A stretch of 28,108 nucleotides of DNA, from IMG/VR virus record IMGVR_UViG_2534682170_000012. The stretch is one strand, 5' to 3'. Shown piece by piece: positions 8,932 to 28,108 of the stretch (position 1 is the first letter of the stretch; each line of letters begins with the position of its first letter). This DNA comes from a virus (lineage: Duplodnaviria; Heunggongvirae; Uroviricota; Caudoviricetes). The notes below the pieces were generated by a model. That model ran no database searches. It worked only from the letters and a program-made list of their open reading frames with translations, and was not told the origin of the DNA. The position numbers were made by a program, and so were the translations under genes.

Positions 8932-8941
8932 GTACCTGTCC

Positions 8942-10321: not shown

Positions 10322-10400
10322 TTCCAAATGTTCCTGCAAAGTTAACGTAGCCCACAAGGCGCTAAGTATACTTTCTGCTATATTTTTTTCACTATACAAA

Positions 10401-10428
10401 TGCACAATAGTGCACAAATTTGCACAAT
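10401..10428. repeat. Three direct TGCACAA repeats at 10-bp phasing upstream of the cargo operon; a fourth copy at 10493-10499
   Basis: TGCACAA at 10401, 10411 and 10421, read directly. Possible operator or packaging-recognition element. Confidence 0.3.
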
Positions 10429-10800
10429 TTTTTTGAACGACTTTTTGCCCTTCCGGCCCGCATGGTGGCTGGATCCGTCAAGGATCCGTGCGTGCACAAA
10501 AAAACGCATTTTTTCTGCGCGCAGGTGACGGGGGAACAGCCCGCGTTTCAGGGGGTAAATAGCATCCCCTGAACGATGTCGCAGCGACACAACAGAATGG
10601 CTGTATTTCTCACGCTGAGCGTGAAAAAGACGTGAGGGCTTTTGATTTGATGGGGTGAAAGGTAAGGCCGTCAAAATCGCACTGAGACGGCGAGAACATG
10701 CAGTCAACGCGGTGGGATTGCGTAAGAGTCTGACTGTCGATGATGGCAATCAGCAGGAAAGCGTCGTGAAATTATCTGACTGATACAGGAGCTGGAGAGT

Positions 10801-10825
10801 CGGGGCATAAATTTTTTATGCCCCG
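10801..10825. repeat. Perfect 11-bp-arm palindrome (CGGGGCATAAA ttt TTTATGCCCCG) between the cargo operon and the portal gene
   Basis: Read directly; not followed by a clear U-tract on either strand. Confidence 0.4.
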
Positions 10826-10851
10826 GCGAAGCAGCAGACAAGCGAAGCGCG

Positions 10852-11898: not shown

Positions 11899-13649
11899 CA
11901 GAACTCCATAACCGTGAAACGCTCGTTTTCTCCTTCGCCGCCAATTGGTTCGTTAATGACAGCAAGCATGGTTGCCCACGCAAGGTCGCCGTGGCTGATC
12001 CCCCTCGCGCGGTCCGTTTCGTAAGTGATAAAGCCGCCCGGTGTTTTCACCTTACGCACGGCGTTAAAGGCCGCGACCAGCTCGCGTTCGGCGCGATCGT
12101 ATTCCCACCGCCCTGCACGCATTATTTGCAGCATTTTCAGTACCAGCGACCGTTTTGATGACAGCGTGAAGGTGTACGGAATAGCGGCAGGGAAAAACCG
12201 TTTCACTATCTGATAAACAGCCTCCCCGTTCCCGCCCGTCACATCAATGCCGATGTGTTCCACGTTGTAGTGACACGTGAACTCTTCAATGACTCTGGCC
12301 TGTTCTTCAAACTCCAGCCCCTGAACGCGTCGCGTCTCCACCGTTCGAAAACGGCCACCAGGAACAGCCGGAGGAACCACCACGGACACAGCGCCGCTGT
12401 CGCCGTTGCCACTGCTGCCGTTTGCGTCATACCCAATCCATACCGGGCGATTCCCCATCGGGCGGGGAGCAAAAGGTTTCCAGTCTTTCCAGTCGTCGTA
12501 TCCGTCAACACCACAGCCAATCAGGATATTCAGGTTAAATGCCGATTCCCCTTCGCGGACAAACTCACACATATAGAGATTGAGGAACTCGTCTTCGGTG
12601 TTTTCATCACGAATTTCATCAATATCGGTGTGTTTCCAGCCGTGATTAACCACATCTTCCAGCGTGACAATTTGCCGCCACGTCCGGTCAGGGCAGATAA
12701 GCCCGTTATGCAGCGTTTTCCAGTCCACAGAAAAACGCTGGCGTTTATGCGTGGCCTTTTTCTCGTTCCAGCGGTCGCCGTTCCAGTAGGCGTATGCCTC
12801 GTGCGTTTCGGTGGATGGCGTGGAGAAGTAGGTGCGCCGCAGTCCGCTGAGGGTTGCCATAGCGCCAGCCACCTTGCGCAGTTCAGCAAAGCGACTGACC
12901 CAGAAGAATTCATCAAAATAAAAATTGCCCGTATAGGACTGTGCCGACGCAGCAGAAGTGCCGAGAAAATGCAGCTCTGCGCCGTTGGAGAGGATGATTT
13001 TATCGCCCCCTTTCAGCTCCACATCAACTTCAGCCGCGGCCTTCTGAATAATGCTTTTAAACTGGAACGCCTGACGACGCGACGCAGACAAAAAAATCTG
13101 GTTACGCTGATAAGGTTGCACCACATCGTCACGCAGCGCCATCAGCAGTGCTTCCTGTGCAAAATACCAGGTCGCCCCAATCTGTCGGGATTTCAGGATC
13201 ATCCTGTTACGTATCCCGGCTTCCCTGCAAAGGGTCAGGGAGTCAAACCAGCCCCGCTGATGCCACTCCAGCCTGCTGATGATTTTTTCCCGCAGTGCGG
13301 CAATCTGTTCCGGCGTGAAATGATTTTTGAGTTTTTTCGCCCGGCCTTTCTTTCCTGCGGCCATCACATCCGGCTGGCCATCATGCAGCTTTTTAAGCTG
13401 CCGTGTCAGCAGGTCTATTTCCTTGAAGTCACCGCCTGTTTTATTCTGTTTTTCAGTAAGCTGGATGAGGCGCGCATCAATGGATTGCGTGACACGCTGC
13501 ACGGGTGGCGTTTCATCCCACTGGTCGCGTTTTTTCCACGCATAAATCGTGTTCGGGTTTATTCCCATCAGACGTGATATTTCTGCGGGCGGATAACCCT
13601 GCCAGTAAAGTTGTCGCGCACGCTGGCGCACAAAAGCGTCCTGAATCAT
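11898..13649 (-). CDS. P: Terminase large (ATPase) subunit, P2 gpP family
   Basis: 583 aa; N-terminus MIQDAFVRQRARQLYWQGYPPAEISRLMGINPNTIYAWKKRDQWDE is gpP-like. Divergent from the O-N-M-L operon as in P2. Confidence 0.88.
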   Translation of the reverse strand: MIQDAFVRQRARQLYWQGYPPAEISRLMGINPNTIYAWKKRDQWDETPPVQRVTQSIDARLIQLTEKQNKTGGDFKEIDLLTRQLKKLHDGQPDVMAAGKKGRAKKLKNHFTPEQIAALREKIISRLEWHQRGWFDSLTLCREAGIRNRMILKSRQIGATWYFAQEALLMALRDDVVQPYQRNQIFLSASRRQAFQFKSIIQKAAAEVDVELKGGDKIILSNGAELHFLGTSAASAQSYTGNFYFDEFFWVSRFAELRKVAGAMATLSGLRRTYFSTPSTETHEAYAYWNGDRWNEKKATHKRQRFSVDWKTLHNGLICPDRTWRQIVTLEDVVNHGWKHTDIDEIRDENTEDEFLNLYMCEFVREGESAFNLNILIGCGVDGYDDWKDWKPFAPRPMGNRPVWIGYDANGSSGNGDSGAVSVVVPPAVPGGRFRTVETRRVQGLEFEEQARVIEEFTCHYNVEHIGIDVTGGNGEAVYQIVKRFFPAAIPYTFTLSSKRSLVLKMLQIMRAGRWEYDRAERELVAAFNAVRKVKTPGGFITYETDRARGISHGDLAWATMLAVINEPIGGEGENERFTVMEF

Positions 13650-13803
13650 TGCTCCCCCTGAGTAATTACAGGAAGATTACCCGCGCGCGAAACCGTTCTC
13701 CTTAACCCCCTGTTCTGACTGTTTTCTTACAACAAAAGCCCTTTGTATCAGCCTGTTACGCTTTGCCATCATGACTGAAGAACCAGTCAGAGGGGCAAAA
13801 ACT

Positions 13804-14640
13804 ATGGCTAATGAAAAAAAGACATCCCGCAAAAAGTTTCGCGTGGCTGTCTCCGGTGTAACGGCAGACGGGCGCGAAATCAACGGCGACATGCTGAAAG
13901 CTGCCGCCACCAGTTATAACCCGTCCGTTTATGGTGCACGTGTGAATATTGAGCACATCTTGTCACCACTCCCCGGTAGCGAGTTTTCCGCTATGGGCGA
14001 TGTTGTGGGGTTGAGCACCGAAGACATAACCGATGGCCCGCTGGCAGGTCGCACGGCACTGTATGCCGAAATTGAGCCGACCGCTCGCATGATGTCCCTG
14101 CTTAACGATGGTAAAAAAATATACTCCAGTATTGAGCTGGAACCACAGTCAACCATCACGGGAGGCCCTTACCTGCGCGGGCTGGCAATGACCGACACCC
14201 CCGCCAGCCTGGGCACGGAACGTCTGGCCTTTGCGGCACAACAACGTATGCAACTGATGACATTCAACTGTCAGCAGGGAGACGTGGCGATGTTTACCGC
14301 CGCTATGGAGTCAGAACTTATCGAACTCACCGAACAACGTCAGGAAGAAGGCACCCAGTGGTTTAACCGCGTTATGGGGATTATTGGCCGTGGCCGCAAA
14401 GCGGATGACGCCAGTTTCTCCCGTATTCAGGAAGCGGTGGAAGGTGTCGCAACGTCACAGGCCGACATTATCGACCGTTTTAATGCGCTGGAAACCCGCC
14501 ATCAGCAGGACAGCCAGAAAATCACTTTACTGACCACAGAGCTGACAGCACTGAAGGAAAAACTGCGCACGCAGGACGGCGATCCGCAGAACCGGTTCAC
14601 CGCAACGGGCGCAGCCTCCGATCAACTGGCTGACTTCTGA
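13804..14640 (+). CDS. O: Capsid scaffolding protein, P2 gpO family
   Basis: Start taken at MANEKKTSRKKFRVAVSG (GAGGGG RBS) rather than the ORF-track start at 13771. The VYG.R.N.EH and GLA.TD.PASLGTE segments match remembered gpO. Confidence 0.85.
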   Translation: MANEKKTSRKKFRVAVSGVTADGREINGDMLKAAATSYNPSVYGARVNIEHILSPLPGSEFSAMGDVVGLSTEDITDGPLAGRTALYAEIEPTARMMSLLNDGKKIYSSIELEPQSTITGGPYLRGLAMTDTPASLGTERLAFAAQQRMQLMTFNCQQGDVAMFTAAMESELIELTEQRQEEGTQWFNRVMGIIGRGRKADDASFSRIQEAVEGVATSQADIIDRFNALETRHQQDSQKITLLTTELTALKEKLRTQDGDPQNRFTATGAASDQLADF

Positions 14641-14663
14641 TAAGACAAAGGAGCAATTTTTTT

Positions 14664-15716
14664 ATGAATCTGGTGATGTCAGATATTACCCGCAACAAGC
14701 TGGGTTGCTATATGGCGCAGCAGGCGTCGCTTAACAACATCCCGGTATCTGCACTGGTATCGCGATTTACCGTGGAACCCTCGGTGCAGCAGCGTTTTGA
14801 AAACGCAGTAAAGGAGAGCACTGAATTTACAAAAAAAATTAACGTGTTCGGTGTGACCGACCAGAAAGGCGAAAAAATCCTCCTGGACACCACCGGGCCG
14901 ATTGCGCGCACGAATACCAGTTATGACGGCACAAAACGCCGTAACCCGAATAACGTGGTTGATCTGAAAAACCGCAAATATCAGTGCGAACAGGTGAACT
15001 ACGACACGTTTATTTCGTATCCGCAGCTTGATGCCTGGGCGGCACACCCTGATTTTCAGTCACGCGTCAGCACACAGATTGCCCGGCAGGTGGCGCTTGA
15101 CCGCATCATGATCGGTTTCAACGGCACGTCTCACGCAGATGAGTCCAACTTCAGCACCAACAAGCTGCTTCAGGACGTTAACGTGGGATGGCTGGAGCAC
15201 ATCAGAACCGACGCCAGCGAGCGCGTAATGAATGACGTGACGCTGACCTCCCGCAACATGGACAACACCGTGGCGCACGCGGGTAAGTATGCGAACGCTG
15301 ATGCACTGGTACAGGACGCGCGCTCATCCCTGCTGGATGAATGGCACAAGGAAGCTGACGACCTCGTGGTGATTATGGGGCGCAACCTGTTTAACTCGCT
15401 GCGTCTGCCCGTGCTGAACAGCATCAGCGGCCAGAATCCCAATGCGGAATTACTTGCCGGACAGCTCATCCTGTCATCGCGCGCCATTGGCGGGCTGGAT
15501 GTATTCCTTGCGCCGTTCTTCCCGGATTCAACGATGCTGATCACCTCGTTCAATAACCTGTCGATTTACTGGCAGAAAGGAACAATGCGTCGCCTGATGA
15601 AAGACGAGCCGGAATACAACCGCATCGCCACCTACCAGTCCATCAATGACGCTTATGTCGTTGAAGACTATGGCAAGTGCGCGATGGTCACTGGCCTGAA
15701 GTTCGCCGACAGCTAA
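14664..15716 (+). CDS. N: Major capsid protein, P2 gpN family
   Basis: 350 aa; FTVEPSV, GEKI, IMIGFNG and LQDVNVGWL segments match remembered gpN; AAGGAG RBS. Confidence 0.88.
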   Translation: MNLVMSDITRNKLGCYMAQQASLNNIPVSALVSRFTVEPSVQQRFENAVKESTEFTKKINVFGVTDQKGEKILLDTTGPIARTNTSYDGTKRRNPNNVVDLKNRKYQCEQVNYDTFISYPQLDAWAAHPDFQSRVSTQIARQVALDRIMIGFNGTSHADESNFSTNKLLQDVNVGWLEHIRTDASERVMNDVTLTSRNMDNTVAHAGKYANADALVQDARSSLLDEWHKEADDLVVIMGRNLFNSLRLPVLNSISGQNPNAELLAGQLILSSRAIGGLDVFLAPFFPDSTMLITSFNNLSIYWQKGTMRRLMKDEPEYNRIATYQSINDAYVVEDYGKCAMVTGLKFADS

Positions 15717-15761
15717 TCAACTCACGGCGGGCATCATGCCCGCCTGTAACGGAGAGAAAAA

Positions 15762-16562
15762 ATGATTACTCCTGCACAGCAACACTGGCAGAACGTGATG
15801 GCACAGCGCGCAGGCCGGGCGAATGAAGGCGTGGACCACGCCGCGCGTACCGCGCATGAAGAGGTGCTGTATCGTCTGCGTCTGGCACAGGCCCGACTTA
15901 AGGGGGTACAGGCCAGAAGCGCGAAAGCCGCCATCAAAAAAGAGTTGTTGCCGGACTTTTCCGGCTGGATTGAGGGAACGCTGGAGGCTGACGGCGGGCA
16001 GCAGGATGAAGTGATTGCCACGCTGATGGTGTGGGCAATTGACTGCGGCGATCTTCCGCTTGCGCTGCGTATTGGTGCGTATGTGGTCCGTCACAACCTC
16101 ATCATGCCGGATAACTTTGGCCGTACTGCTGCCACGGTACTGACCGAAGAAATCTGCAACCCGGTACTGACGCAGGCCGGGACGGATGCCGACGCGGATT
16201 TGTCCGCCTTTATCGAACCACTGGACACACTTTGGGAAATTGTCGCCAACCAGGATATGCCGGACGAAGTGCGAGCCAAATTATGCAAGGCGTGCGCCTT
16301 TGCCCGCCGTAGCCTGAGCGATGCGGACAGCATGGCCTCATCACTGAAGCTGCTGCGCGAAGCGATGCACCTGAACCCGAACGCAGGTGTGAAACGCGAG
16401 ATTGCAACCCTTTCCCGCGCTCTGAAAAAAGCCGATTCCGCAGCCGCACCAGAAGATGCCAGCACACCACAGGCGCAGAACGAAAGCAGCAAAAGTAAAA
16501 AGACAACGCGGAAGCCTGCAACACGAAAAACCACCGCGACGCAGAAGGCGAAGCGCGGTTAA
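15762..16562 (+). CDS. M: Terminase small (endonuclease) subunit, P2 gpM family
   Basis: 266 aa; ELLPDF, MPDEVRAKL and AGVKREI segments and the basic K/R-rich C-terminus match gpM. Confidence 0.85.
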   Translation: MITPAQQHWQNVMAQRAGRANEGVDHAARTAHEEVLYRLRLAQARLKGVQARSAKAAIKKELLPDFSGWIEGTLEADGGQQDEVIATLMVWAIDCGDLPLALRIGAYVVRHNLIMPDNFGRTAATVLTEEICNPVLTQAGTDADADLSAFIEPLDTLWEIVANQDMPDEVRAKLCKACAFARRSLSDADSMASSLKLLREAMHLNPNAGVKREIATLSRALKKADSAAAPEDASTPQAQNESSKSKKTTRKPATRKTTATQKAKRG

Positions 16563-16663
16563 CGACTGACCCCGTCAGCGGGCGGCGTGCGCGGTGTTCC
16601 GGTTTGACTCCGTGACCGTTTACACCGCGCACCCACCGCCCGATTTTTTCAGGAGTGAACCCC

Positions 16664-17158
16664 ATGAGTATGGTTGCCAGAACCAACCCCGGACCCGCAG
16701 AGGACGACATCACCGATACCGATGATGGTGATACCCGTATTTCAGCGGGTGCATTCTGGCCGGATATTGTGCTGCGTGAGCTGCGTCTGGCGGTACGACT
16801 GCCGGGGCGCGTGACCACCTCCCGCCTGCTGCATACCGCCACCGGGGCGGTGGCTCACGTTACCCGCGAGCTGGAAGCATGGCAGCAGGAACAGCAGGCG
16901 GCTGGCCATCAGACGCTGGCCGATGTTCCGGCACCCGTAATTAACGGAGAAAGCGTCAATCTCTGGCACTGGCGCAATGCCGTTTATACCGCCACACGCG
17001 CCCTGATTCTGGAGCGTTACCGCGATGCGGACACAACGGATAAGGGCGACCGCCGGGCGGACGCACTGGATATACAGACATCGGATTTGTGGCGCGATGT
17101 GAGCTGGGCCATCTCTGACATTCTGCGCCGCCCGCGAATTTTTGCGGAGTTGTGCTGA
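16664..17158 (+). CDS. L: Head completion/stabilisation protein, P2 gpL family
   Basis: AFWPDI, LAEVPAP.INGESVN and ERYRD segments match gpL. Start taken at the ATG at 16664 (AGGAG RBS at 16651-16655). Confidence 0.85.
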   Translation: MSMVARTNPGPAEDDITDTDDGDTRISAGAFWPDIVLRELRLAVRLPGRVTTSRLLHTATGAVAHVTRELEAWQQEQQAAGHQTLADVPAPVINGESVNLWHWRNAVYTATRALILERYRDADTTDKGDRRADALDIQTSDLWRDVSWAISDILRRPRIFAELC

Positions 17159-17358
17159 TGAAAGTGAAGGCACTGGAAGGCGACACCGTGGATTCGCTCT
17201 GTTTCCGGTACTACGGCACGACGCAGGGCGTCACCGAAAAGGTGCTGGATGCCAACCCCGGACTCTGTCAGCAGGTATTTCTGGACGCCGGGCAGGACGT
17301 GGAGATGCCGGAGCCGGAGAAGAAGAAACGAGAAATGATTCAGTTGTGGGGGGAGTAG
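17158..17358 (+). CDS. X: Tail protein, P2 gpX family
   Basis: ALEGDTVDSLCFRYYG...ANPGL matches gpX; ATG overlaps the gpL stop. Confidence 0.8.
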   Translation: MKVKALEGDTVDSLCFRYYGTTQGVTEKVLDANPGLCQQVFLDAGQDVEMPEPEKKKREMIQLWGE

Positions 17359-17360
17359 CA

Positions 17361-17684
17361 GTGAGCACCATTCAAACAGGGATCACAGAGCAGGTTATTG
17401 CGTGGCTCTTTGACCACCTGCCAACGGTGTATGCAGTAGGCGCGGCAGTCAGCATTTCCGCGCTGATGAGTCTTTATGACGGACGAACACTGGTTCAGAC
17501 CGTAACGGGATCGCTGGCGTGCGGCGTTCTTGCCATGGCCGTGGCCGGGTCGTTGCGCTTCTTCGGGTTTCCTGAAGATGCCGTGACGTTTATCGGCGCA
17601 TCAATCGGTTTTATGGGCGCAGAGAAAGCACGCGACAAGGTTATTGCGGCCTTTAATCGCAGGGGGAAGGAGAAGGACGAATGA
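17361..17684 (+). CDS. Putative holin
   Basis: GTG start directly after the gpX stop; about 107 aa with hydrophobic helices (AVGAAVSISALMSLY, LACGVLAMAVAGSL) and a charged C-terminus. Immediately upstream of the endolysin. Confidence 0.6.
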   Translation: MSTIQTGITEQVIAWLFDHLPTVYAVGAAVSISALMSLYDGRTLVQTVTGSLACGVLAMAVAGSLRFFGFPEDAVTFIGASIGFMGAEKARDKVIAAFNRRGKEKDE

Positions 17685-18073
17685 GCAACACATTTAAATT
17701 CAGCAGCCGGAGCGAAAAGAATTTGCAGGGCGTAAATCCTGATCTGGTGAAAGTGACCCGACGGGCACTGGAAATTTCGGAAGTGGATTTTGGTATCACC
17801 GAAGGGTTGCGCAGCCGTTACCGCCAGAAGCAACTTGTGGCCACAGGTAAGAGCCAGACCATGAACAGCCGCCACCTTACGGGACATGCCGTGGATGTTG
17901 TGGCTTATATCGGCAGCCAGGTGTCATGGGAATGGCCGCTGTACGAAAAAATCGCAGCAGCATTCAGACAGGCCAGCCGGGAGCTGAATATTCCGGTGGA
18001 ATGGGGCGGCGACTGGAAGACCCTGAAAGACGGACCGCATTTTCAGTTACCACACGGAGTCTATCCGGCATGA
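17681..18073 (+). CDS. Endolysin, peptidase M15-like (L-alanyl-D-glutamate peptidase type)
   Basis: 130 aa; SRHLTGHAVDV and WGGDW motifs are typical of zinc peptidase M15 phage endolysins. Lysis-cassette position. Confidence 0.75.
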   Translation: MSNTFKFSSRSEKNLQGVNPDLVKVTRRALEISEVDFGITEGLRSRYRQKQLVATGKSQTMNSRHLTGHAVDVVAYIGSQVSWEWPLYEKIAAAFRQASRELNIPVEWGGDWKTLKDGPHFQLPHGVYPA

Positions 18074-18477
18074 AGCTCTGGCCCACGCTGGGTGTCGCTT
18101 TCCTTCTGATTGCCGCATGGGGAACATCCATGCGTCTGTCATGGTCGCTGGGCCGGGAGAACGCCAGAAACGAAGCGCAGGCCAGCACCCTGAAACGTAC
18201 CGCCGACACCCTGAATATCATTAGCGCCGGGGTACAGGATATGCAGCAGGTGCTGGCGCAACTCCGCGTGGAAAATCAGCAACGCAATCAGGACGGAGAG
18301 GCAAGACGTGAACAGCTACGCAACGATATTGCAAAAGATGAATGCGCCCACGCTTTGCCTGACGCTCGTTTTACTGACAGGCTGCGCAGGCACGCAGAAC
18401 GCGCCACGGCCAGCGCCGTCAGTCCGGCTTATACCGCAGACGCTGACCATACCGGTAACGCCTCCCCCCTTCCCTGA
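18070..18477 (+). CDS. Spanin inner-membrane subunit (LysB/Rz-like)
   Basis: ATG overlaps the endolysin stop; N-terminal TM LWPTLGVAFLLIAAWG followed by a charged coiled-coil-like region. The ORF-track start at 17926 is rejected. Confidence 0.6.
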   Translation: MKLWPTLGVAFLLIAAWGTSMRLSWSLGRENARNEAQASTLKRTADTLNIISAGVQDMQQVLAQLRVENQQRNQDGEARREQLRNDIAKDECAHALPDARFTDRLRRHAERATASAVSPAYTADADHTGNASPLP

Positions 18478-18628
18478 CACTCCCACATGGGGAAATCTCG
18501 GTATATGGGGCGACCGCCTTCTGGATGCACTGGAAACCTGTAACGCGGATAAACGGGCCATTGAATTACTGGAACAGCGCAGGCTGCAACGACTGAACAA
18601 CGAGGACAACAACCATGCTGAAAACTGA
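18338..18628 (+). CDS. Spanin outer-membrane lipoprotein subunit (LysC/Rz1-like), overlapping the i-spanin in another frame
   Basis: Internal Met followed by lipobox LLTGCAG; Pro-rich mature part; overlapping arrangement as for P2 lysB/lysC. Confidence 0.55.
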   Translation: MNAPTLCLTLVLLTGCAGTQNAPRPAPSVRLIPQTLTIPVTPPPFPDTPTWGNLGIWGDRLLDALETCNADKRAIELLEQRRLQRLNNEDNNHAEN

Positions 18629-19082
18629 TTCCCTGCGTGAAGCCATGACCCGTTCATGCCGATGGTGTCAGGCCAACCCGGAAAAATTCACCATTTTCGT
18701 GGAGAGCGGCAACATTGAAACGACCGGAGAAACGCCCTCGTTTGTTTACCGCTATCAGATGGTGATGTTTGTCATGGATTACGCCGGGGAGCTGGACGAC
18801 CTCACGCTGCCGCTACTGGCGTGGTTATCCGAAAATCAGCCACAGTTGTTGCTCAATCCGGAGCGTAATCAGGACATCAAATTTTCCGCCGTTATCAATG
18901 ACGATGACAGCGCCGATCTCCTGTTTACGCTCCCCCTGCGGGAACGCGTTCGCATTACGCGCAGCAGTCAGGGTACACCGCAGGCAGAACACCTGCCAGA
19001 GCCAAAACCCCGTCTGCCCTCTTCCGAAGGCGACTGGTCGCATGTATTCCAGGATGTGACGTGGGGTGAAAGCGATGGATAA
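18615..19082 (+). CDS. R: Tail completion protein, P2 gpR family
   Basis: MLKTDSLR...VPVLAWL-like segment (LPLLAWLSENQP) matches gpR. Confidence 0.8.
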   Translation: MLKTDSLREAMTRSCRWCQANPEKFTIFVESGNIETTGETPSFVYRYQMVMFVMDYAGELDDLTLPLLAWLSENQPQLLLNPERNQDIKFSAVINDDDSADLLFTLPLRERVRITRSSQGTPQAEHLPEPKPRLPSSEGDWSHVFQDVTWGESDG

Positions 19083-19710
19083 GGCATTCACCCGTGTGGA
19101 TGAAACCTTTGAGGCCATCCGCGACAGCCTGAATCAGCAGGTCATCAATAACATCGCCAGAAAGCTGGCACAGGATTTACGCCGCGCCCAGCAGGCACGT
19201 ATCCGGTCACAGAAAGCGCCGGACGGGACCGCGTGGACACCTCGCAGACGCCGCGTAACCCGGATACAGGAGCGCATTCGCTTTATCTGGAATAACGAAG
19301 CACGCACGCTGAAAAACTGGCATCACGACACGGGGAAATACGGGCGAACCATTACCGGGTGGGATGAGGATAAAAACAATATCCGCACGTTTTACCGGGA
19401 TGACATCGACCGTTTTCTGGAAATACGCACCCGGCGCATCAACCAGGACAGCACAAAGCGCGTCCCCATGTTCGTAAAACTGCGCACCGCCCGCTACCTG
19501 AAAGCCCGTGCAGATGCTTCCGGTGTGACGGTGGGTTACAGCGGCGTGGCCGCACGTATTGCACGCGTTCATCAGTTCGGTGAGCGCGATCAGGTTGCGC
19601 CGGGCATTTTCACCGATTACCCGGTACGTGAGCTGCTGGGTATCAGCCAGGCAGATGAGCGCCTGATTTATAACACGGTGCTGGGTCGGATTGCGGAGGC
19701 TGTACGGTGA
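19066..19710 (+). CDS. S: Tail completion / virion morphogenesis protein, P2 gpS position
   Basis: 214 aa ORF between R and V; assigned by position and size. Start could be the ATG at 19075. Confidence 0.65.
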   Translation: MKAMDKAFTRVDETFEAIRDSLNQQVINNIARKLAQDLRRAQQARIRSQKAPDGTAWTPRRRRVTRIQERIRFIWNNEARTLKNWHHDTGKYGRTITGWDEDKNNIRTFYRDDIDRFLEIRTRRINQDSTKRVPMFVKLRTARYLKARADASGVTVGYSGVAARIARVHQFGERDQVAPGIFTDYPVRELLGISQADERLIYNTVLGRIAEAVR

Positions 19711-20288
19711 GCGCAGAACTCATGCGACTGCTGAGCAATATCATCCGTACCGGGATCATCTCTGAAGTTGATGAGAAGTCCTGGCGCGTGCGCGTTCGCA
19801 GCGGCGGACTGGAAACAGGCTGGCTGCGCTGGAACACCACGCGCGCGGGAGCCTTCAATGTGTGGCTGCCGCCATCACCCGGCGAACAGGTGGTAATTGC
19901 CTGCATTGGCGGCAACCCGGAAACCGCCATGATAATTGGCAGCCTGTGGAGTGATGCCAGTCCGCCCCCCGGCAAAAGCCTGAAAGAAATCGTGGTCAGC
20001 GCGCCGGACGGCGCGGTGTTCCGCTACGACGCGGACGCAGGCGCGCTGAGCGCCAGCGGCATGAAAACAGCCACCCTGCAGGCATCCGTCAGCGTGACAC
20101 TGGACGCGCCCGTCGTGGAATGCACAGACCTTCTGAGAACAGCGACGCTTGACGTCACAAAAGGGGGAAAGATGAGCGGCAATATCACGCACAGCGGCGG
20201 CGATTTCACCTCAAACGGCATCACAGTGCATACGCATAAACACGGTGGCGTGAAAGGCGGCAGCGATTCGACAGGAGGCCCGCAGTGA
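19707..20288 (+). CDS. V: Baseplate spike/assembly protein, P2 gpV family
   Basis: IRTGII, GEQV, PDGAV and HTHKH segments match gpV; GTG start overlaps the S stop. Confidence 0.88.
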   Translation: MSAELMRLLSNIIRTGIISEVDEKSWRVRVRSGGLETGWLRWNTTRAGAFNVWLPPSPGEQVVIACIGGNPETAMIIGSLWSDASPPPGKSLKEIVVSAPDGAVFRYDADAGALSASGMKTATLQASVSVTLDAPVVECTDLLRTATLDVTKGGKMSGNITHSGGDFTSNGITVHTHKHGGVKGGSDSTGGPQ

Positions 20289-20635
20289 CAACCCGCTACA
20301 CAGGAATGAATCCGGACGGGACGGGAAACCTGAACGATATGGAGCACCTGAAACAGTCAGTCAGGGACATCCTGACCACCCCGCTGGCAAGCCGGGTTAT
20401 GCGACGGGAATATGGCAGCCTTGTGCCTGATTTGATTGACGAACCCATGAATAACACCACGCGTCTGCAATGCATGAGTGCTGCCGTGATTGCGCTGACA
20501 CGATGGGAACCCCGCATTGCCCTGGATGCCATCGACGTTGTCTGGAAGGCAGGAGGCCGCGCCGGGGTGACGCTGTCGGGCACTGTCATGCAGACCATGC
20601 AGAATGTTGAATTAACCATCACGCTAAGGGAGTAA
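20285..20635 (+). CDS. W: Baseplate protein, P2 gpW family
   Basis: MTTRYTGMN...SRVMRREYGSL matches gpW (MTARYLGMN...SRVMRRDYGSL). Confidence 0.88.
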   Translation: MTTRYTGMNPDGTGNLNDMEHLKQSVRDILTTPLASRVMRREYGSLVPDLIDEPMNNTTRLQCMSAAVIALTRWEPRIALDAIDVVWKAGGRAGVTLSGTVMQTMQNVELTITLRE

Positions 20636-20638
20636 ATC

Positions 20639-21535
20639 ATGCCCGCCGTTGACCTTTCACAGTTACCGGACCCCGCCATCATCGCGGAGCCTGACTTTGA
20701 GGCAATTCTGGCTGACACAAAGGCCATGATGATTGCGGCTTATCCCGCCGAACAGCGTGAAGCCGTCTCCGCCGCGCTGGAGCTGGAATCGGAACCCCTG
20801 AACGTTATCGCCCAGACAACAGCGTTTCGTGAAATGCTGTTACGCCAGCGGGTCAATGAGGGTGCACGCGCCTGCATGTTAAGCCACAGCGCCGGGACAG
20901 ACCTGGACAACCTCGCGGGCAATATGAACACAAAGCGCCTGGTTATCACTCCGGCAACGAATACCACCGACGCGGTGATGGAAAGCGACACCTCGCTGAG
21001 ACTGCGGGCGCAACGGGCGTACGACGGCCTGAGTGTTGCTGGCCCGTCAGGTGCATACGAGTATTTTGCCCGCAGCGCCAGCGGTCTGGTGCGTGATGCG
21101 CGGGCTATCAGTCCGTCTCCGGCAAATGTGACGGTTTCCATCCTGTCCACTGAAGGCGACGGCACAGCAACGGAGGCGTTGCTTAATACCGTTCGCGCCG
21201 TTCTGAATGCAGAGGATACCCGCCCGGTGGCCGACCGCCTGACCGTACAGAGTGCCAGAATCGTGACATGGCGGCTGAATGCAAAACTGTACTTTTACCC
21301 CGGCCCGGAATCCGAACCTATTCTGGCCGCGGCGGAATCGTCGTTCAGCAAGTGGCTGGCTGAGCAGGGGCTTATCGGTCAGGACGTGGCGTTATCCGCC
21401 ATTGCTGCCGCACTGCATGTGCACGGTGTGCAACGCGTGGAGATAATCGAACCCACACAGAATATGGCCATCAGCGACATACAGGCGGCGCGCTGTGAGT
21501 CGTTCACCATCAGCGAAGGTGGGCGCAATGAGTAA
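20639..21535 (+). CDS. J: Baseplate protein, P2 gpJ family
   Basis: 298 aa; LESEPL, RPVADR(L)TVQSA, YPGPESEPI and GVQRVE segments match gpJ. Confidence 0.88.
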   Translation: MPAVDLSQLPDPAIIAEPDFEAILADTKAMMIAAYPAEQREAVSAALELESEPLNVIAQTTAFREMLLRQRVNEGARACMLSHSAGTDLDNLAGNMNTKRLVITPATNTTDAVMESDTSLRLRAQRAYDGLSVAGPSGAYEYFARSASGLVRDARAISPSPANVTVSILSTEGDGTATEALLNTVRAVLNAEDTRPVADRLTVQSARIVTWRLNAKLYFYPGPESEPILAAAESSFSKWLAEQGLIGQDVALSAIAAALHVHGVQRVEIIEPTQNMAISDIQAARCESFTISEGGRNE

Positions 21536-22058
21536 TTCGCTGTTACCACCATCAGCCAGCAATTTCATGCGTTGCGCCGAAGCTGTCGGAGCGCGCATTA
21601 CAAACATCCCGGTAGACCTCAACACGCTGTGGTCACCGGATACCTGCCCGGTGCATCTGCTGCCTTATCTCGCCTGGGCATTTTCCGTTGACCGCTGGGA
21701 TCGCAACTGGCCGGAAGAGACAAAGCGACAGGTTATTCGTGATGCATGGCTGATACACCGACACAAAGGGACCATCAGCGCACTGCGCCGGGCCATTGAG
21801 CCGCTGGGATACCTCATTCGCGTGTCTGAGTGGTGGGAGTTCGGCGGAGAACCGGGAACATTTACCGTTGAAGTCGGCACGCTGGACAGTGGCGTGACGG
21901 AGGAAATGTATCTGGAAATGGAGCGGTTGATTGCTGATGCCCGCCCGGTCAGCCGCCACATGACAGGGCTGAATATCATTCAGGAAATTCCGGGGGATAT
22001 TTTCGCAGCGGCGGCAACTTATGACGGTGAAGTTATTACCATTTATCCAGGCGATTAA
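21528..22058 (+). CDS. I: Baseplate/tail protein, P2 gpI family
   Basis: Start taken at MSNSLLPP, overlapping the J stop; PDTCP..LLP.LAWAFSVDRWD and HKGTI segments match gpI. Confidence 0.85.
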   Translation: MSNSLLPPSASNFMRCAEAVGARITNIPVDLNTLWSPDTCPVHLLPYLAWAFSVDRWDRNWPEETKRQVIRDAWLIHRHKGTISALRRAIEPLGYLIRVSEWWEFGGEPGTFTVEVGTLDSGVTEEMYLEMERLIADARPVSRHMTGLNIIQEIPGDIFAAAATYDGEVITIYPGD

Positions 22059-22060
22059 GC

Positions 22061-24226
22061 ATGAGTACCACAACACGAAAATTTAAAACCGTTATCACCG
22101 ATACGGGTGCAAAAAAATTAGCTCAGGCAGCCGCGCCAGATGGTAAGCCTGTCCGCCTGACTCATATGGCCGTGGGCGACGGTGGCGGCGCGTTGCCCAC
22201 ACCAGACAGTAAGCAGACCCGTCTGGTGCATGAGGTGTGGCGACACACTGTTAATCGCGTCATCCTGGACGCAACACATCAGAACCGCATTATTGCGGAG
22301 CTGGTTATTCCTCCTGAAACGGGCGGATTCTGGATCCGGGAAATTGGTGTATTTGATGAGCACGGCGATTTAATCGCGGTGGGCAATACTGCCGAAAGTT
22401 ACAAACCAACCGTTGCCGAAGGGTCCGGACGTGCACAAACATTTCGCACTATTCTGACCGTATCCAGCACTGCCACCGTGGCGCTTACCGTGGATAACAC
22501 CATGGTGATGGCCACAGTGGATTACGTGGATGACAAACTGAAAGAGCATGAACAGTCACGACGTCACCCGGACGCCTCGCTGACCGCAAAAGGCTTTGTT
22601 CAACTCAGTAGCGCCACTAACAGCGATTCTGAAACGCTGGCTGCAACGCCGAAAGCGGTTAAGGCCGCGTATGACCTGGCTAACGGAAAATATACCGCTC
22701 AGGACGCCACGACGGCACGAAAAGGGATAGTCCAGCTCAGCAGTGCAACCAACAGCACGTCTGAAACGCTGGCAGCGACACCAAAAGCGGTTAAGGCGGT
22801 AATGGATGAAACGAACAAGAAAGCCCCATTAAACAGCCCGGCACTGACCGGAACGCCAACAACACCAACTGCACAACAGGGAACGAATAATACCCAAATC
22901 GCAAGCACGGCTTTTGTTATGGCCGCGATTGCCGCACTTGTAGACTCTTCACCTGACGCACTGAACACGCTGAACGAGCTGGCGGCGGCGCTGGGCAACG
23001 ACCCGAATTTTGCGACCACCATGACTAACGCGCTTGCGGGTAAGCAACCGAAAGATGCCACCCTGACGGCGCTGGCCGGGCTTGCTACTGCGGCAGACAG
23101 GTTTCCGTATTTTACGGGGAATGATGTTGCCAGTCTGGCAACCCTGACAGAAGTCGGGCGGGATATTCTTGCGAAATCGACCGTTGCCGCTGTTATCGAA
23201 TACCTCGGTTTACAGGAAACGGTAAACAGGGCTGGTAACGCCGTGCAAAAAAATGGCGATACCTTGTCCGGTGGGCTTACTTTTGAAAATGACTCAATCC
23301 TTGCCTGGATTCGAAATACTGACTGGGCGAAGATTGGATTTAAAAATGATGCCGATGGTGACACTGATTCATACATGTGGTTTGAAACAGGCGACAACGG
23401 CAATGAATATTTCAAATGGAGAAGCAAACAAAGCACCACAACAAAAGACCTGATGAATCTTAAATGGGATGCTTTGTCTGTCCTTGTTAAAGCCCTTTTC
23501 AGCAGTGAAGTAAAAATATCGACAGTCAATGCACTAAGGATATTTAATTCATCTTTTGGTGCTATTTTTCGCCGTTCTGAAGAATGTCTTCATATCATCC
23601 CTACCCGAGAAAATGAGGGGGAAAATGGCGATATAGGGCCACTACGCCCCTTTACGCTTAATCTCAGAACTGGTCGCATAACTATGGGGCATGGTCTGGA
23701 TGTTACAGGAGATATATTTGCAAACCGTTTTGCAATTAACAGTAGTACCGGCATGTGGATTCATATGCGTGACCAGAATGTTATTTTGGGACGCAATGCG
23801 GTATCCACCGATGGTGCACAGGCATTACTTCGTCAGGACCATGCTGATCGCAAATTTATGATTGGTGGGCTGGGAAATAAGCAATTTGGCATCTACATGA
23901 TTAATAACTCAAGGACAGCTAATGGCACCGATGGTCAGGCGTACATGGATAATAACGGGAACTGGCTTTGCGGCTCGCAAGTTATTCCCGGCAACTATGG
24001 CAATTTTGATTCCAGATATGTGAAAGATGTTCGACTTGGTTCACAGAAATATTATGGAGTGAACAACTGGCAAACATGGAATTTCCAGTGCCCGTCAGGT
24101 CATGTATTGTCTGGTATTAATGTTCAGGATACAGGGTCCAACTCTGCCGATAATATAGCGGGCGTTTATTGCAGACCCGTTCAAAAGTATATAAATGGCA
24201 CCTGGTATAATATAGCGAGCGTTTAA
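22061..24226 (+). CDS. H: Tail fibre protein, P2 gpH family, with variable C-terminal receptor-binding segment
   Basis: The N-terminal two-thirds is near-identical in long stretches to remembered P2 gpH ([23 protein letters not shown] repeats, [30 protein letters not shown]). The C-terminal third diverges and ends [11 protein letters not shown]. Confidence 0.9.
23193..23218. repeat. gix/hix-like recombination site, left, inside the tail-fibre gene at the constant/variable junction
   Basis: TTATCGAATACCTCGGTTTACAGGAA matches the reverse complement of the right site at 24 of 26 positions. Confidence 0.7.
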
Positions 24227-24227
24227 T

Positions 24228-24755
24228 ATGATGCACTTAAAGAACATAAAAGCGGGTAATGCTAAAACACTGGAACAGTATGAGTTAACAAAGAAGCACG
24301 GAGTCATCTGGCTTTACTCTGAGGACGAAAAAAACTGGTATGAGGAAGTGAAAAACTTTCAGCCAGACACCATAAAGATTGTTTACGATAAAAATCAGAT
24401 TATAGTCGCTATCACCAGAGATGCTTCAACGCTTAATCCTGAAGGTTTTAGCGTTGTTGAGGTTCCTGATATTACCTCCAACCGACGTGCTGACGACTCA
24501 GGTAAATGGATGTTTAAGGATGGTGCTGTGGTTAAACGGATTTATACGACAGATGAGCAGCAACAACAGGCAGAATCACAAAAGGCCGCGTTACTTTCCG
24601 AAGCAGAAAGCGTTATTCAGCCACTGGAACGCGCCGTCAGGCTGAATATGGCGACGGATGAGGAACGCGCACGACTGGAGTCATGGGAACGCTACAGTGT
24701 TCTGGTCAGCCGTGTGGATACGGCAAATCCTGAATGGCCACAAAAGCCTGAATAA
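24228..24755 (+). CDS. G: Tail fibre assembly chaperone (P2 gpG / Tfa family)
   Basis: 175 aa directly after H; N-terminal region matches the inverted paralogue at 24784-25284. Confidence 0.85.
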
Positions 24756-24760
24756 AAATT

Positions 24761-24780
24761 AAGGCCCGCTATCGGGCCTT
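24761..24780. terminator. Bidirectional hairpin terminator between the convergent fibre-chaperone genes
   Basis: Perfect inverted repeat AAGGCCCG-ctat-CGGGCCTT flanked by A/T-rich runs. Confidence 0.5.
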
Positions 24781-24783
24781 GTC

Positions 24784-25284
24784 TCATTCAGGTTGTTCGG
24801 GAAACGTTACTGGCAGGCTGGAAGTGTCTGTAGATTCGACTTTCTGCGCAAAGAGCATCCACTCTGTTAATTTTTGTTTATTCTCGTCGGAAATGATGCC
24901 CAGCCGTAGCTGTGAGTCCCATAGCTGGGTTTTATCCCTGACGAGCTGTAGCAGGCTTTGCTTTTCATTTTCCGCCTGCTGCCTCTGCTCTTCCTCGGTA
25001 TAAGTTCGCTTTACCACTACGCCATCTTTGAACATCCATTTACCCGAAATGTCAGCACGGCGATTTGCTGTAATATCAGGTAATTCAACGACGCTTGCGC
25101 CTTCCGGATTAATTGCTGAAACATCCTTTTCAATACAAATAATAACGCCGTTATGGCCATAGACCATTTTCAAAGTGTCTGGCTGGAAATTCTTTTGTTC
25201 CTCATACCAGTTTTTTCCATCATCTGAATAAAGCCATTTGATGTTAAATTGCTTTGTTAGCTGGTATTGCTCTTTCGTTCTCAA
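24784..25284 (-). CDS. Alternative tail fibre assembly chaperone (Tfa'), inverted orientation
   Basis: 166 aa; clearly paralogous to G ([31 protein letters not shown]). Confidence 0.8.
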
Positions 25285-25339
25285 AATCGGTGGAGCTGCA
25301 TGACAAAGTCATCGGGCATTATCTGAACATAAAACACTA

Positions 25340-26311
25340 TCAATAAGTTGGAGTCATTACCCCCGCGTTATACCACGTCCCATTAATGCAATACTGAATT
25401 GGCCTTGCCTGAGTTGTATCAATTAATTCATCACGGTTTCCGTTAACTGAACCCGTAACGACATAACCTGACCTGTCAGACCAGCCGGGGCCTTTCCATG
25501 TCTGAACAGATGACAGACCGCCAAGGCGAATACCTGTAATAAACCTTGAGTTACATTCTGCCTGCGTATATGCACCAACATCCCCCGCAGAGGGTTTGCG
25601 TGTTGTGGTGTAAAACTCTGACCAGTTAGCTTCAAAGCCATAACCATCACGCGCTGAACGATAAAAAATACCGCCGTTCCTGTAATTCACGCGGAACTGT
25701 ACAGCAGGGCAACTCCCCGCATTCATATTGAAGTGGAGGATTAATGTCGATGCACCACTGATATCTGCATCATAAACACCGCTATTCCAGTTCCAGCCAA
25801 CAGCTTTATCATTTGCGACCCTGCGTCCTGTTTGCCCTAAAGCAAATGCAGGCTGCTGGTTTTTCGTGTTGTAGTCTCGTCGCCAGCCAGGAGCGTAAGC
25901 ATCACCATGATTAATATAAGTGAATTGAGCGTTAGTAATTCCGCCACCGCTGGACGTGCTCGGCGTAGTAACGCGTATGGTCATTGCGCCGCGAGTGCCA
26001 ATAACTTCCACCACAGCACCTGCAAGACAAATATTTCCGCAACCTGTATCTGTAATAACCTTATTATTTGCATAAGCCCATGAGCCTTTGCACATCCAGT
26101 AAGGATGGTTAAATGCCCCCTGACTCTCCAGCCACGAAATAAATTGCGCAGTTGTCCAGACCTGACTATCGCCACCAATATTCAGCCATGCGCTATATGC
26201 GCGGCAGGCACCAATGTTTTTGGTGAAGGTATCTTTTCCCGGAATATCTGCGCCGTTCTGGTTTTTCTGTAATGCGCCAGAAGCCTGATTTACCGTTTCC
26301 TGTAAACCGAG
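25340..26311 (-). CDS. Alternative tail-fibre C-terminal segment, start-less; would be fused in frame to H after inversion
   Basis: Hand translation of the minus strand from the right gix site gives LGLQETVN, then a novel segment ending [15 protein letters not shown]. The codon just upstream is a stop, so it has no own start. The ORF-track ATG at 26095 is internal. Confidence 0.7.
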
Positions 26312-26322
26312 GTTTTAGATAA
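26297..26322. repeat. gix/hix-like recombination site, right
   Basis: TTCCTGTAAACCGAGGTTTTAGATAA; one mismatch to the Mu gix sequence as I remember it; inverted relative to the left site. Confidence 0.7.
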
Positions 26323-26376
26323 TGGCGGTTTCTGGCCTGCATGGCATGATTTGTGCTTTTGGACGGGAGATTCAGC

Positions 26377-26703
26377 GTGCTGATTGGCTATGTAAGGGTA
26401 TCAACAAATGACCAGAATACAGACCTGCAACGAAACGCTCTTGTTTGTGCAGGATGTGAACAAATATTTGAAGATAAATTAAGCGGAATAAGGACAGGCC
26501 GACCTGGATTAAAACGTGCTTTAAAGCGCCTTCAAAAAGGTGACGCACTGGTTGTCTGGAAACTGGACTGACTGGGTCACTGTATGCGGCATCTTGTCGT
26601 GCTGGTGGTGGAAGCCTGGAAGAAGTATCGGGTGTTGCTGAACCGTGTTAATACAACAACTGCACCGGATATTGAATGGCCAACAGGACCCATTATCGAA
26701 TAG
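26377..26703 (+). pseudogene. Serine DNA invertase (Gin/Hin/Pin/Cin family) pseudogene: premature stop after about 65 codons, decayed downstream part, C-terminal DNA-binding region missing
   Basis: GTG start with GGGAGA RBS; N-terminus LIGYVRVSTNDQNTDLQRNAL...LVVWKLD matches the invertase catalytic domain (Ser in VRVSTNDQ). In-frame TGA at 26569-26571 where the family has Arg. The same frame then reads [14 protein letters not shown], a degenerate version of LGRSMKHLISLVGE, and ends at TAG 26701-26703. Confidence 0.7.
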
Positions 26704-26714
26704 TGCATTACGAA

Positions 26715-26747
26715 CTGCAGGATATTATATGGGATAATATTCTGCAG
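26715..26747. terminator. Near-perfect 14-bp-arm hairpin (CTGCAGGATATTAT-atggg-ATAATATTCTGCAG) followed by a T-rich run
   Basis: Read directly; lies between the invertase remnant and the 3' end of the diguanylate cyclase gene. Confidence 0.4.
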
Positions 26748-26776
26748 TTTATTGGGGCTGTATTTTAAAAAGGTGT

Positions 26777-28108
26777 TTATTTTGAGTGAGTTATCACCTT
26801 GTTTTTTCCGGTTCTTTTGGCTTGATATAACGCTTTATCGGCATTGACTAACATTTCAGATGGACTGAGATTATTCTCTTTTGAAGTAAAGCAACCAATA
26901 CTGACAGTTATTTTCTCAGGTCCATGCGATAATAATTTTTCCGAGCATTGCTCTTCAATGTTTTTTCTGATTCGCTCTGCAATTGATAGCAAGAGCTTTT
27001 GAGTATTACCTTTAATGATAATACCGAACTCCTCACCGCCTAAGCGCCCTAATATATCCTCTTTCCTGATGGATTTTTTTATTATTCTGGTAACCATTAC
27101 TATGACTTGATCACCCATATGATGCCCCCATTTGTCATTGATGCTTTTGAAATTGTCAATATCTAACATTATTACTGAGAAATCATGGTGTTTTGATATA
27201 TTCTTCAATGAGTCAATAAAGTATCTTCTATTGTATGTATTCGTTAGTGGATCATGAATTGCCATATGATTAGCATGATTTAATTTCCTGAAAACATAAT
27301 ACATGAGTGTTGAAATGATATAAATCATTGATATCAATTCAAGAAATTTTGTCATGTACCATGCAGGATGGGATTTATCAATAAAATACAATAAAATTAG
27401 ATTATTGCATACTGACACTATACTAATAAGTATTATACACAACCATATTTTTGAGTAATTACGTATGCTGATGCATGAGCTGATAAGTAATACAAGCCAA
27501 AATACTGATATTATTTTGGTGTACACGATATTCCACGTCGGCAAATGACGATTCAGCGAGTATTGTATAATATTAAGACTATATTTTATATTGTCACTGC
27601 TTAGATTTTTTGCTACAAACGGAGTAATAAAAAGAATTAATATTGACAAAACAACAATTATTATGTTTCTTTTATCTTCTAAAACACTTTTGTTTTTAAC
27701 ATTGGTGGAATAAACAGCCAGAAAGATTATAGATATAAAGCTGAACTGACGGAATAGATAATATATTGCGATATCATTTGATTTCTGATAGATTGTAGAT
27801 AAATCGTTACCTAACGGAGATAAAGAAATAATAGCCACTTCTAATAAATAATACGTGTTGCTCAAAAACGCGAATGAAAGAATTAAGAGATAACTTTGTC
27901 TCTGATTAGAAACATAGTAAAGCAATAGAAAAATAAAAATCATCAGGTTTATGAAAAAAAGCCCAATAATGAAAACACTATAACTTATTTGTGTTGTTTG
28001 TGTTATGTATATTCCATTATTTGCATGCAGTAACAAAAATATAATAGAGATGCATGAAAATAAAAAGATGAAGATTTTTATTTTTATAGGTACCTGGTTG
28101 ATAATCAT
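26777..28108 (-). CDS. Membrane-bound diguanylate cyclase: multi-pass N-terminal membrane domain plus GGDEF domain (YcdT/DgcT-like architecture)
   Basis: C-terminal GGDEF domain with HDPLTNTYNRRYF, RLGGEEFGIII (GGEEF active-site motif) and DKALYQAKRTGKNKV. N-terminal half is highly hydrophobic and AT-rich. The ORF start codon is the last 3 nt of the window, so the true start may lie beyond it. Confidence 0.8.
   Translation of the reverse strand: MIINQVPIKIKIFIFLFSCISIIFLLLHANNGIYITQTTQISYSVFIIGLFFINLMIFIFLLLYYVSNQRQSYLLILSFAFLSNTYYLLEVAIISLSPLGNDLSTIYQKSNDIAIYYLFRQFSFISIIFLAVYSTNVKNKSVLEDKRNIIIVVLSILILFITPFVAKNLSSDNIKYSLNIIQYSLNRHLPTWNIVYTKIISVFWLVLLISSCISIRNYSKIWLCIILISIVSVCNNLILLYFIDKSHPAWYMTKFLELISMIYIISTLMYYVFRKLNHANHMAIHDPLTNTYNRRYFIDSLKNISKHHDFSVIMLDIDNFKSINDKWGHHMGDQVIVMVTRIIKKSIRKEDILGRLGGEEFGIIIKGNTQKLLLSIAERIRKNIEEQCSEKLLSHGPEKITVSIGCFTSKENNLSPSEMLVNADKALYQAKRTGKNKVITHSK

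Follow-up and report, generated by a model that had tools for sequence, protein, structure and literature searches.

Among the bacterial c-di-GMP synthases described to date, the closest system to the gene analysed here is DgcX of Escherichia coli, a protein of medical interest. Richter et al. 2014 (PMC4287979) reported dgcX as an extra GGDEF gene in O104:H4, 55989, HUSEC041 and the ETEC strains E24377A and H10407, encoding a protein with an intact A-site and an intact I-site (PMC4287979) behind an N-terminal hydrophobic domain of about 270 residues that is common to YcdT and YeaI (PMC4287979). The gene is situated between ybhC and ybhB beside lambdoid prophages (PMC4287979, PMC10459773), i.e. 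at the lambda attB, and lambdoid prophage DNA always adjoins it (Richter et al. 2014, PMC4287979). Fusions of dgcX to lacZ gave the highest expression of any E. coli diguanylate cyclase (DGC) gene, dependent on both RpoD and RpoS (PMC4287979). Overexpression has been published to cause csgD-independent cellulose production, which is lost in GGEAF and GGAAF mutants, and the published cellulose and rdar phenotypes require the GGEEF motif; the catalytic mutants E359A and E360A were described by Cimdins-Ahne et al. 2023 (PMC10459773). Deletion of dgcX in strain Fec101 has been published to have a minor effect only.

The window studied here is a stretch of 28,108 nt from a tailed-phage record (IMGVR_UViG_2534682170_000012), most of which is a P2-like prophage. 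Its right end is occupied by an open reading frame of 443 codons on the minus strand (26777-28108), recognised as dgcX from the reading frame itself, Pfam, 100% DNA identity and primer matches. Based on the analyses below we propose that this gene is, very probably, dgcX, an accessory gene of lambda-type prophages located last before attR, and not cargo of the P2-like phage.

The reading frame is intact, with intact catalytic and I-site motifs. Its ATG forms the final three bases of the window, so that the promoter lies outside. An earlier note, made from the sequence alone, had described a gene much more AT-rich than the prophage that encodes a multi-pass membrane domain fused to an intact GGDEF domain with a GGEEF active site, and both points stand. 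The GC content of dgcX is 29.8%, against 55.2% in the P2-like structural genes (10500-24000) and 49.3% in the whole window. Residues 40-274 form a MASE4 integral-membrane sensor domain (27287-27991, minus strand; Pfam PF17158, E 7.4e-36), with a score of 124 bits against a Pfam gathering cut-off of 28.4, and Kyte-Doolittle peaks mark approximately 7-8 hydrophobic segments N-terminal to residue 275. The GGDEF catalytic domain follows at residues 283-437 (26798-27262, minus strand; Pfam PF00990, E 9.6e-45) and is complete, covering profile positions 1-161 of 161. In NCBIfam, the generic GGDEF model TIGR00254 matches with E 2.6e-48, and no DgcX-specific model was found, all matches being to generic GGDEF models or below the cut-off. 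Read against the sequence, the A-site GGEEF occupies residues 357-361 (27026-27040, minus strand) and the I-site RKED, of the RxxD type, residues 348-351 (27056-27067, minus strand); the order RKED, ILGRL, GGEEF places the I-site five residues before the A-site. A 1.3-kb reading frame in DNA of 30% GC with Pfam E-values of this kind is not a product of chance.

The flanks of the gene hold two candidate control elements. An inverted repeat at 26715-26747 lies between the convergent tfa remnant and dgcX, and RNA folding of 26690-26790 (minus strand) yields -16.8 kcal/mol with z = -4.0. The hairpin is a candidate two-way terminator only, with no clean U-run on the dgcX strand. Upstream, in the source contig, a sigma-70-like pair (TTGACA, 17 nt, TAGTAT; 10 of 12 matches; L006 463-491) is found 73-101 nt 5' of the ATG; sigma-70-like sites upstream of dgcX are not enriched relative to shuffled sequence, and this site is likewise a candidate only.

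The gene appears to be the published dgcX, since the primers of the dgcX::lacZ fusions, the E359/E360 numbering, the length of 443 residues and the ybhC|ybhB locus all agree. As the primers, taken from Table S3 of Richter 2014, carry engineered restriction sites in their 5' parts, their 3' ends were matched. The 3' 23 nt of dgcX-u-18 are identical to the last 14 bases of the window and the next 9 of the source contig, and the 3' 17 nt of dgcX-d-412 match exactly 393 nt upstream of the ATG in that contig. The GGEEF motif at 357-361 puts its glutamates at E359 and E360, the residues mutated in published DgcX, and CAU96679.1, the DgcX of strain 55989, is listed with the same length as the window protein. 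The assignment is based on primer 3' ends, length, residue numbering and locus. Many E. coli genomes contain a gene of 100% DNA identity that bears a diguanylate cyclase annotation.

dgcX occurs in 771 of 5,426 complete E. coli genomes and is absent from 86%; coverage of the gene reaches 80% or more in 767 genomes, and identity 99% or more in 665. The joint dgcX-attR-ybhB is present in 585 of the 767 full-length carriers; where the context of the identical protein was read, its gene lies 746 bp from ybhB (10 of 10), and in H9Ecoli, MSI001, PSJ-14 and LF3-1 it is the last gene ahead of ybhB-bioA. The order at the occupied site is tfa, dgcX, the P arm of sib/attP, the att core and ybhB. In H9Ecoli, the lambda att core GCTTTTTTATACTAA occurs at both ends of the insertion, on the ybhC side by a lambda-type integrase (L001 3166-3180) and between dgcX and ybhB (L001 22178-22192). 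Roughly 400 bp from the upstream region of dgcX to the core match attP/sib of HK106, HK97 and their relatives at 94-97%. On the other side, in L008, an intact lambda-type stf (1077 residues) and tfa (194 residues) converge on dgcX, leaving a gap of 73 bp. The empty attB of K-12 (ybhC|ybhB) has a single core, with both flanks aligning and neither an insert nor dgcX. Since K-12 lacks the gene at the empty site and the gene lies between two att cores at the occupied one, dgcX is part of the lambda-type prophage itself, placed between tfa and sib/attP, and is thus a prophage-borne gene and not host flank. Its position, at the right end of the b-region, is that of an accessory gene ('moron') of lambda-type prophages. 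Many carriers hold prophage remnants only, and the dgcX of the most complete prophage seen, in MSI001, has an internal stop. None of 50,697 phage records searched by megablast and tblastn contains dgcX, the best protein match being below 40% identity, and carriage in phage particles is for this reason putative only.

The remainder of the window has a different origin. Positions 1-23192 comprise the left part of a P2-like prophage, from the integrase to the constant part of the fibre gene H, with 96-99.8% identity to P2-like prophages, which in complete genomes sit between yecA and leuZ. The true P2 cargo slot of the window is at 7794-10417; PADLOC returned no match for DgcX or for three AT-rich P2 cargo ORFs. 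The invertible fibre segment is bounded by a pair of inverted repeats, the Gin-type crossover sites: the left one (23193-23218) lies within H, and the right one (TTCCTGTAAACCGAGGTTTTAGATAA, 26297-26322) resembles the gix site of Mu. The segment 23193-26322 is flipped in the sister contig L007 (AQBO01000040.1). Within the segment, a tfa' without about 12 N-terminal codons adjoins an 87-nt IS1 end fragment (25275-25361; 100% identical to the IS1 ends in L001), which separates it from the alternative fibre tip. This fragment is the left end of a stretch of roughly 1 kb that is common to att-lambda remnants, and, starting at 25272, identity of the window to the att-lambda remnant of PSJ-14, whose IS1 is complete, reaches 99.97%. 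Next to the right crossover site lies a serine invertase pseudogene of the Gin/Pin/Hin type (26377-26604, plus strand), identified from the N-terminal part of the Pfam Resolvase domain and by alignment to the 195-residue invertase of L007. It carries a premature TGA (26569-26571), is fused to a tfa remnant at about codon 75, and is 94.7% identical to the P2-type invertase versus about 100% to the att-lambda copy. The tfa remnant (26605-26703, plus strand) retains only the final 32 codons of its gene, a lambda-type tail-fibre assembly gene, and these correspond to the 3' end of the intact 194-residue tfa of L008. The remnant bounds the conserved dgcX block on the left and is annotated as a partial tfa in RefSeq genomes. 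Hence, the statement in the earlier note that the gene abuts a fibre/invertase module is borne out by the crossover sites, the invertase pseudogene and the tfa remnant.

The earlier proposal that dgcX occupies the cargo hotspot of P2-like phages after gene G, ahead of the tail sheath gene, does not fit these flanks. The stretch 26284-28108 agrees at 99.9-100% identity with that end of lambdoid prophages at att-lambda which lies next to attR; against L001 the blast alignment breaks at 26284, and the sequence is of the att-lambda type from there rightwards, which places the start of the dgcX block in the window at about 26284, possibly at 25275. The match to P2-like prophages spans 1-26567, and in 13 of 13 complete genomes with at least 80% query coverage it stops at 26567. 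Past H, the prophage of EC21Z-147 and the sister contig L007 have the invertible segment (tfa, tfa' and the alternative tip), then the full 195-residue invertase, followed by the tail genes U, T, E, FII and FI and then D and ogr, an order read in this one complete relative and the sister contig. The source contig, AQBN01000036.1 of the draft assembly GCA_000358045.2, is 100% identical to the window, which is its end. Sheath and tube genes, which the note had proposed to look for past the window, do not follow; the contig instead runs into lambda sib/attP-arm DNA and ends there, 563 bp past dgcX and 78 bp short of the att core. These 563 bp belong to the ybhB-side locus, ybhB itself being beyond the contig end. 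Given the lambda-type flanks and the invertase and tail genes that P2-like relatives have at the same place, dgcX is not cargo of a P2-like phage in a G-to-FI slot, whether or not the join in the contig is real.

Relatives of DgcX fall into identity clusters at 100% (6087 members), 80-85%, 67%, 51-52% and 41-43% (Citrobacter), followed by proteins at about 37%, as distant from DgcX as is K-12 DgcT; the close family is limited to Escherichia and Citrobacter, and all alleles measured have 30-32% GC. The 85% allele belongs to a prophage inserted at torT|torS, which encodes a contractile-tail baseplate and a lambda-type integrase; the allele follows the tfa of this prophage, and its nucleotide identity of 89% extends over the 563-bp upstream region, the gene and the 3' end of tfa. 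A 51% allele is found at the end of Rac, adjoining uspF, and a 52% allele of E. albertii lies in a prophage, after tfa and a gene of the metallo-beta-lactamase fold. The 67% allele is positioned between ybcH-nfrA-nfrB and folD, with homology confined to the coding region.

These comparisons bear on two readings that would give the gene another identity or another home, each of which we consider to have next to no probability. One is that the gene is an orthologue of DgcT (YcdT), or else an inactive GGDEF protein of the receptor type such as CdgI (YeaI). The earlier note had pointed to a resemblance of the motif NDIAIYYLFRQ to YcdT, and the motif is indeed identical in DgcX and K-12 DgcT; together with the MASE4-GGDEF architecture that they have in common, this is what the reading draws on. 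However, identity between the two proteins is only 37% over 408 residues and the gene does not lie beside pgaA, so DgcT is a paralogue only and not the same gene. The remark that ycdT lies by a tRNA-linked prophage remnant is roughly correct for K-12, where dgcT adjoins pgaA and IS3 with serX about 3 kb away, and has no bearing on a gene that is not ycdT. As for CdgI, the GGEEF of DgcX is intact, whereas the site of YeaI is reported to be degenerate (PMC4287979), and an inactive receptor is at odds with published phenotypes that need the catalytic motif. The other reading, left open in the earlier note, takes dgcX as host flank, a core or ancestral gene of E. coli that happens to have prophages as neighbours. 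The very constant position beside ybhB is compatible with it, as is the 67% allele, which is chromosomal (ybcH-nfrA-nfrB|folD) and free of phage flanks. For the window allele it is refuted: the gene is missing from the empty attB of K-12 and from most complete genomes, and at occupied sites it lies between two att cores, at 30% GC, with P-arm/sib DNA on one side and the tfa remnant on the other. The comparison with a prophage-free site, which the note had recommended, thus identifies the junction as an att-lambda insertion rather than host flank.

A further question is whether the P2/lambda join exists in the source strain. Both elements carry nearly identical invertible fibre cassettes of the Gin type, and in our assessment the join is most likely an assembly product formed through this repeat, because it is known from a single draft contig, falls in a repeat that short reads cannot resolve and is joined otherwise in the sister assembly. 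Alternatively, recombination in the cassette common to both may have brought the lambda-type dgcX block into the P2-like prophage, which we regard as unlikely; in the source strain, dgcX would in that case have a physical link to a P2-like element, which might also carry it. In favour of such an event, the source contig is continuous and fully identical to the window, matching crossover sites are present at all three loci, and the P2-like elements of L007 and of EC21Z-147 encode a full invertase that acts in trans. In addition, the rare att-lambda-type joint of tfa', IS1 fragment and Sv' is also located inside the P2-like prophage of a second, independent draft assembly (L007). The occurrence of the tfa'/IS1-fragment joint in two independent draft assemblies shows that a real exchange between P2-like and att-lambda fibre cassettes happened in the source lineage, which makes a real join less unlikely. 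Against it, the joint occurs in no complete genome and is unique to one draft contig, it lies within the near-identical repeat of roughly 1 kb (25275-26287), the contig breaks off within lambda attP-arm DNA 563 bp beyond dgcX, and in the sister assembly the invertible segment continues into the P2 invertase and tail genes. Moreover, in the K-12 frame the P2 locus at yecA|leuZ (1.99 Mb) has the same orientation as the att-lambda block (0.81 Mb): H to invertase of P2 runs clockwise, as does the order invertase remnant, dgcX, ybhB at att-lambda. Recombination between the two copies of the shared stretch, about 1 kb long, would for this reason give a junction of the duplication or excision type and not an inversion, an argument that assumes both loci to be at their usual places in the source strain. 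A single-step inversion by the invertase between P2 and att-lambda sites was rejected, as in its products the segment would have the invertase on its left in place of the constant part of H. The window and the sister contig differ by two SNPs, at 25276 and 25583, too few to place a switch point; we note that both lie where copies of the repeat could mix in a consensus. LF3-1 and YSP8-1, which match 24700-25900 with 100% coverage, were also discarded, their matches arising from a nearby IS1 merged into the same place and not from the joint of the window.

Taking dgcX as an accessory gene of the lambda-type prophage, we propose the following mode of action. DgcX would combine a MASE4 sensor in the inner membrane with an active GGDEF domain, and it is predicted to be a c-di-GMP synthase from its motifs and the published mutant phenotypes. 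By analogy with the GGDEF family, two such domains presumably dimerise to condense two GTP into c-di-GMP, and binding of c-di-GMP at the RxxD I-site would provide product feedback inhibition, while MASE4 probably gates the activity on a membrane or envelope signal. According to the published work, a strong promoter of its own resides in the approximately 400 bp upstream of the gene, just past the window end. With this promoter, dgcX would be expressed from the resident prophage regardless of the lytic genes of the phage. DgcX would then raise c-di-GMP and, in turn, matrix production, via CsgD and curli in O104:H4 and as cellulose in Fec10.

The earlier note had called a c-di-GMP synthase notable if phage-borne; the gene is prophage-borne, and this is not a new observation, DgcX having been published in 2014 (PMC4287979). 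The gene is already known and the window adds no new biology about it. What is added here is a map based on att core and attP arm, by which dgcX belongs to the lambda-type prophage and has tfa on one side and sib/attP on the other, unlike some of the literature, which treats it as outside mobile elements; its frequency in complete E. coli genomes (771 of 5,426, 585 with the ybhB joint); and evidence of diverged alleles at equivalent positions of other prophages, which extends the published picture modestly. The work also calls for caution, as the P2-like neighbourhood of dgcX in this draft contig is probably a repeat-mediated join. A bolder interpretation, to which we assign a small chance, is that DgcX-type MASE4 cyclases constitute a long-standing cargo family of Escherichia prophages rather than a one-off, and that the P2/lambda joint might be real. 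The idea of a cargo family draws on the tfa-dgcX-P-arm block at torT|torS and on the distant alleles at the end of Rac and after the tfa of E. albertii. If true, prophages would have a role in reshaping the cell surface, hence in susceptibility to other phages, and, if the joint were real, shared invertible fibre cassettes could move cargo between unrelated phage families. The genes ybcH-nfrA-nfrB form a c-di-GMP-dependent glycan system, which is the receptor pathway of phage N4, and the position of the 67% allele right after them would be consistent with the family having begun as a regulator of a neighbouring exopolysaccharide system.

In comparison with described systems, DgcX has in common with DgcT (YcdT) of K-12 the MASE4 domain, an active GGDEF domain, the NDIAIYYLFRQ motif and AT-rich DNA (dgcT 38.6% GC). 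It differs in the 37% identity and in that dgcT is chromosomal and divergent from pgaABCD; dgcT is also reported to be very weakly expressed, whereas dgcX is reported to be the most strongly expressed DGC gene. The cargo hotspots of P2, i.e. the old/tin slot and the Z/fun slot, resemble the arrangement in the draft contig, where dgcX comes after fibre and fibre-assembly genes; however, the flanks of dgcX are lambda-type, and P2-like relatives have the invertase and tail genes there. The similarity to morons of the lambda b-region such as lom is closer in kind, comprising the slot between tfa and the sib/attP P arm, the deviating GC content, a promoter of its own (according to the literature), a hairpin after the gene and expression in the lysogen, although the product of dgcX is a second-messenger synthase and no free phage genome with dgcX is on record. 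Finally, the gene shares with published DgcX of O104:H4, 55989 and ETEC its 443 residues, the MASE4-GGDEF architecture, GGEEF with E359 and E360, the RxxD I-site and the primer sites, along with the flanking DNA of ybhC|ybhB, the lambda attB, beside lambdoid prophage genes. At the level of the gene, no difference between the two was found; what sets the draft contig apart is its left neighbour, a P2-like prophage.

The P2 cargo slot at window 7794-10417, which separates replication gene A from the portal gene, is the true variable-cargo site of this P2-like prophage. It holds three AT-rich ORFs (34.9% GC) on the minus strand, of 269, 114 and 491 aa, for which Pfam has no families on record and PADLOC returned no match. 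In relatives the equivalent slot carries ParM/StbA together with StbB, an S8 peptidase together with an AAA ATPase, or DUF3800. We suggest that the three ORFs may encode an undescribed defence system.

The P2-like lineage also differs from P2 in the strand of its tail genes. In canonical P2, G is followed by FI through U, all on one strand. In two P2-like loci, L004 (35767-41342) and L007 on the sister assembly contig AQBO01000040.1 (3937-9512), the invertase directly precedes U, T, E, FII and FI, which are opposite in strand to the fibre gene H. In the window, a Gin-type invertible fibre segment of 3.1 kb spans 23193-26322; its two crossover sites (23193-23218 and 26297-26322) are each 26 bp long, and the segment is inverted in the sister assembly. 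Both orientations of the fibre segment are likewise seen among the prophages at the lambda attachment site, where the prophages' own invertase is a pseudogene, so that inversion there would require an invertase acting in trans.

An 87-nt end fragment of IS1 (window 25275-25361) has replaced the junction at which the alternative fibre tip would meet its assembly gene; the tip ORF terminates within the IS1 sequence, and tfa' is shortened by approximately 12 N-terminal codons. The IS1/tip joint also occurs in prophage remnants at the lambda attachment site (PSJ-14), in which IS1 is complete, while the tfa'/IS1 joint is found in two draft assemblies only.

Among the lambdoid prophages seen at this attachment site, that of MSI001 is the most complete, with head, tail, J, lom, stf and an invertible segment; here, dgcX is interrupted by an internal stop (L002 21378-22709). 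Intact dgcX is retained in many strains that have prophage remnants only. In one genome, GCA_019584445.1 (L015, 11405 onward), the dgcX block stops 73 bp past the stop codon, and the genes beyond it are not of phage type (an AraC-type regulator, FaeA-like and a group II intron maturase). The neighbour of dgcX on the left is thus highly variable, in contrast to the constant ybhB side.

Diverged DgcX-like genes are found elsewhere. In E. albertii (L040 8001-10336), a 52% identical gene follows a prophage tfa and is accompanied by a metallo-beta-lactamase-fold gene with a faint match to the anti-Pycsar Apyc1 family, so that the accessory region of this prophage would contain two adjacent nucleotide-signalling genes. 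A 67% identical gene is chromosomal (CP057162.1, L030 9001-10335), directly preceded by nfrB-nfrA-ybcH and followed by folD; the equivalent position in K-12 is occupied by sfm, argU and the DLP12 prophage. Phage N4 infection requires NfrB, a glycan synthase activated by c-di-GMP (PMC8669469, PMC8669472). The arrangement resembles that of dgcT beside pgaABCD, again a MASE4 cyclase paired with a c-di-GMP-dependent polysaccharide system.
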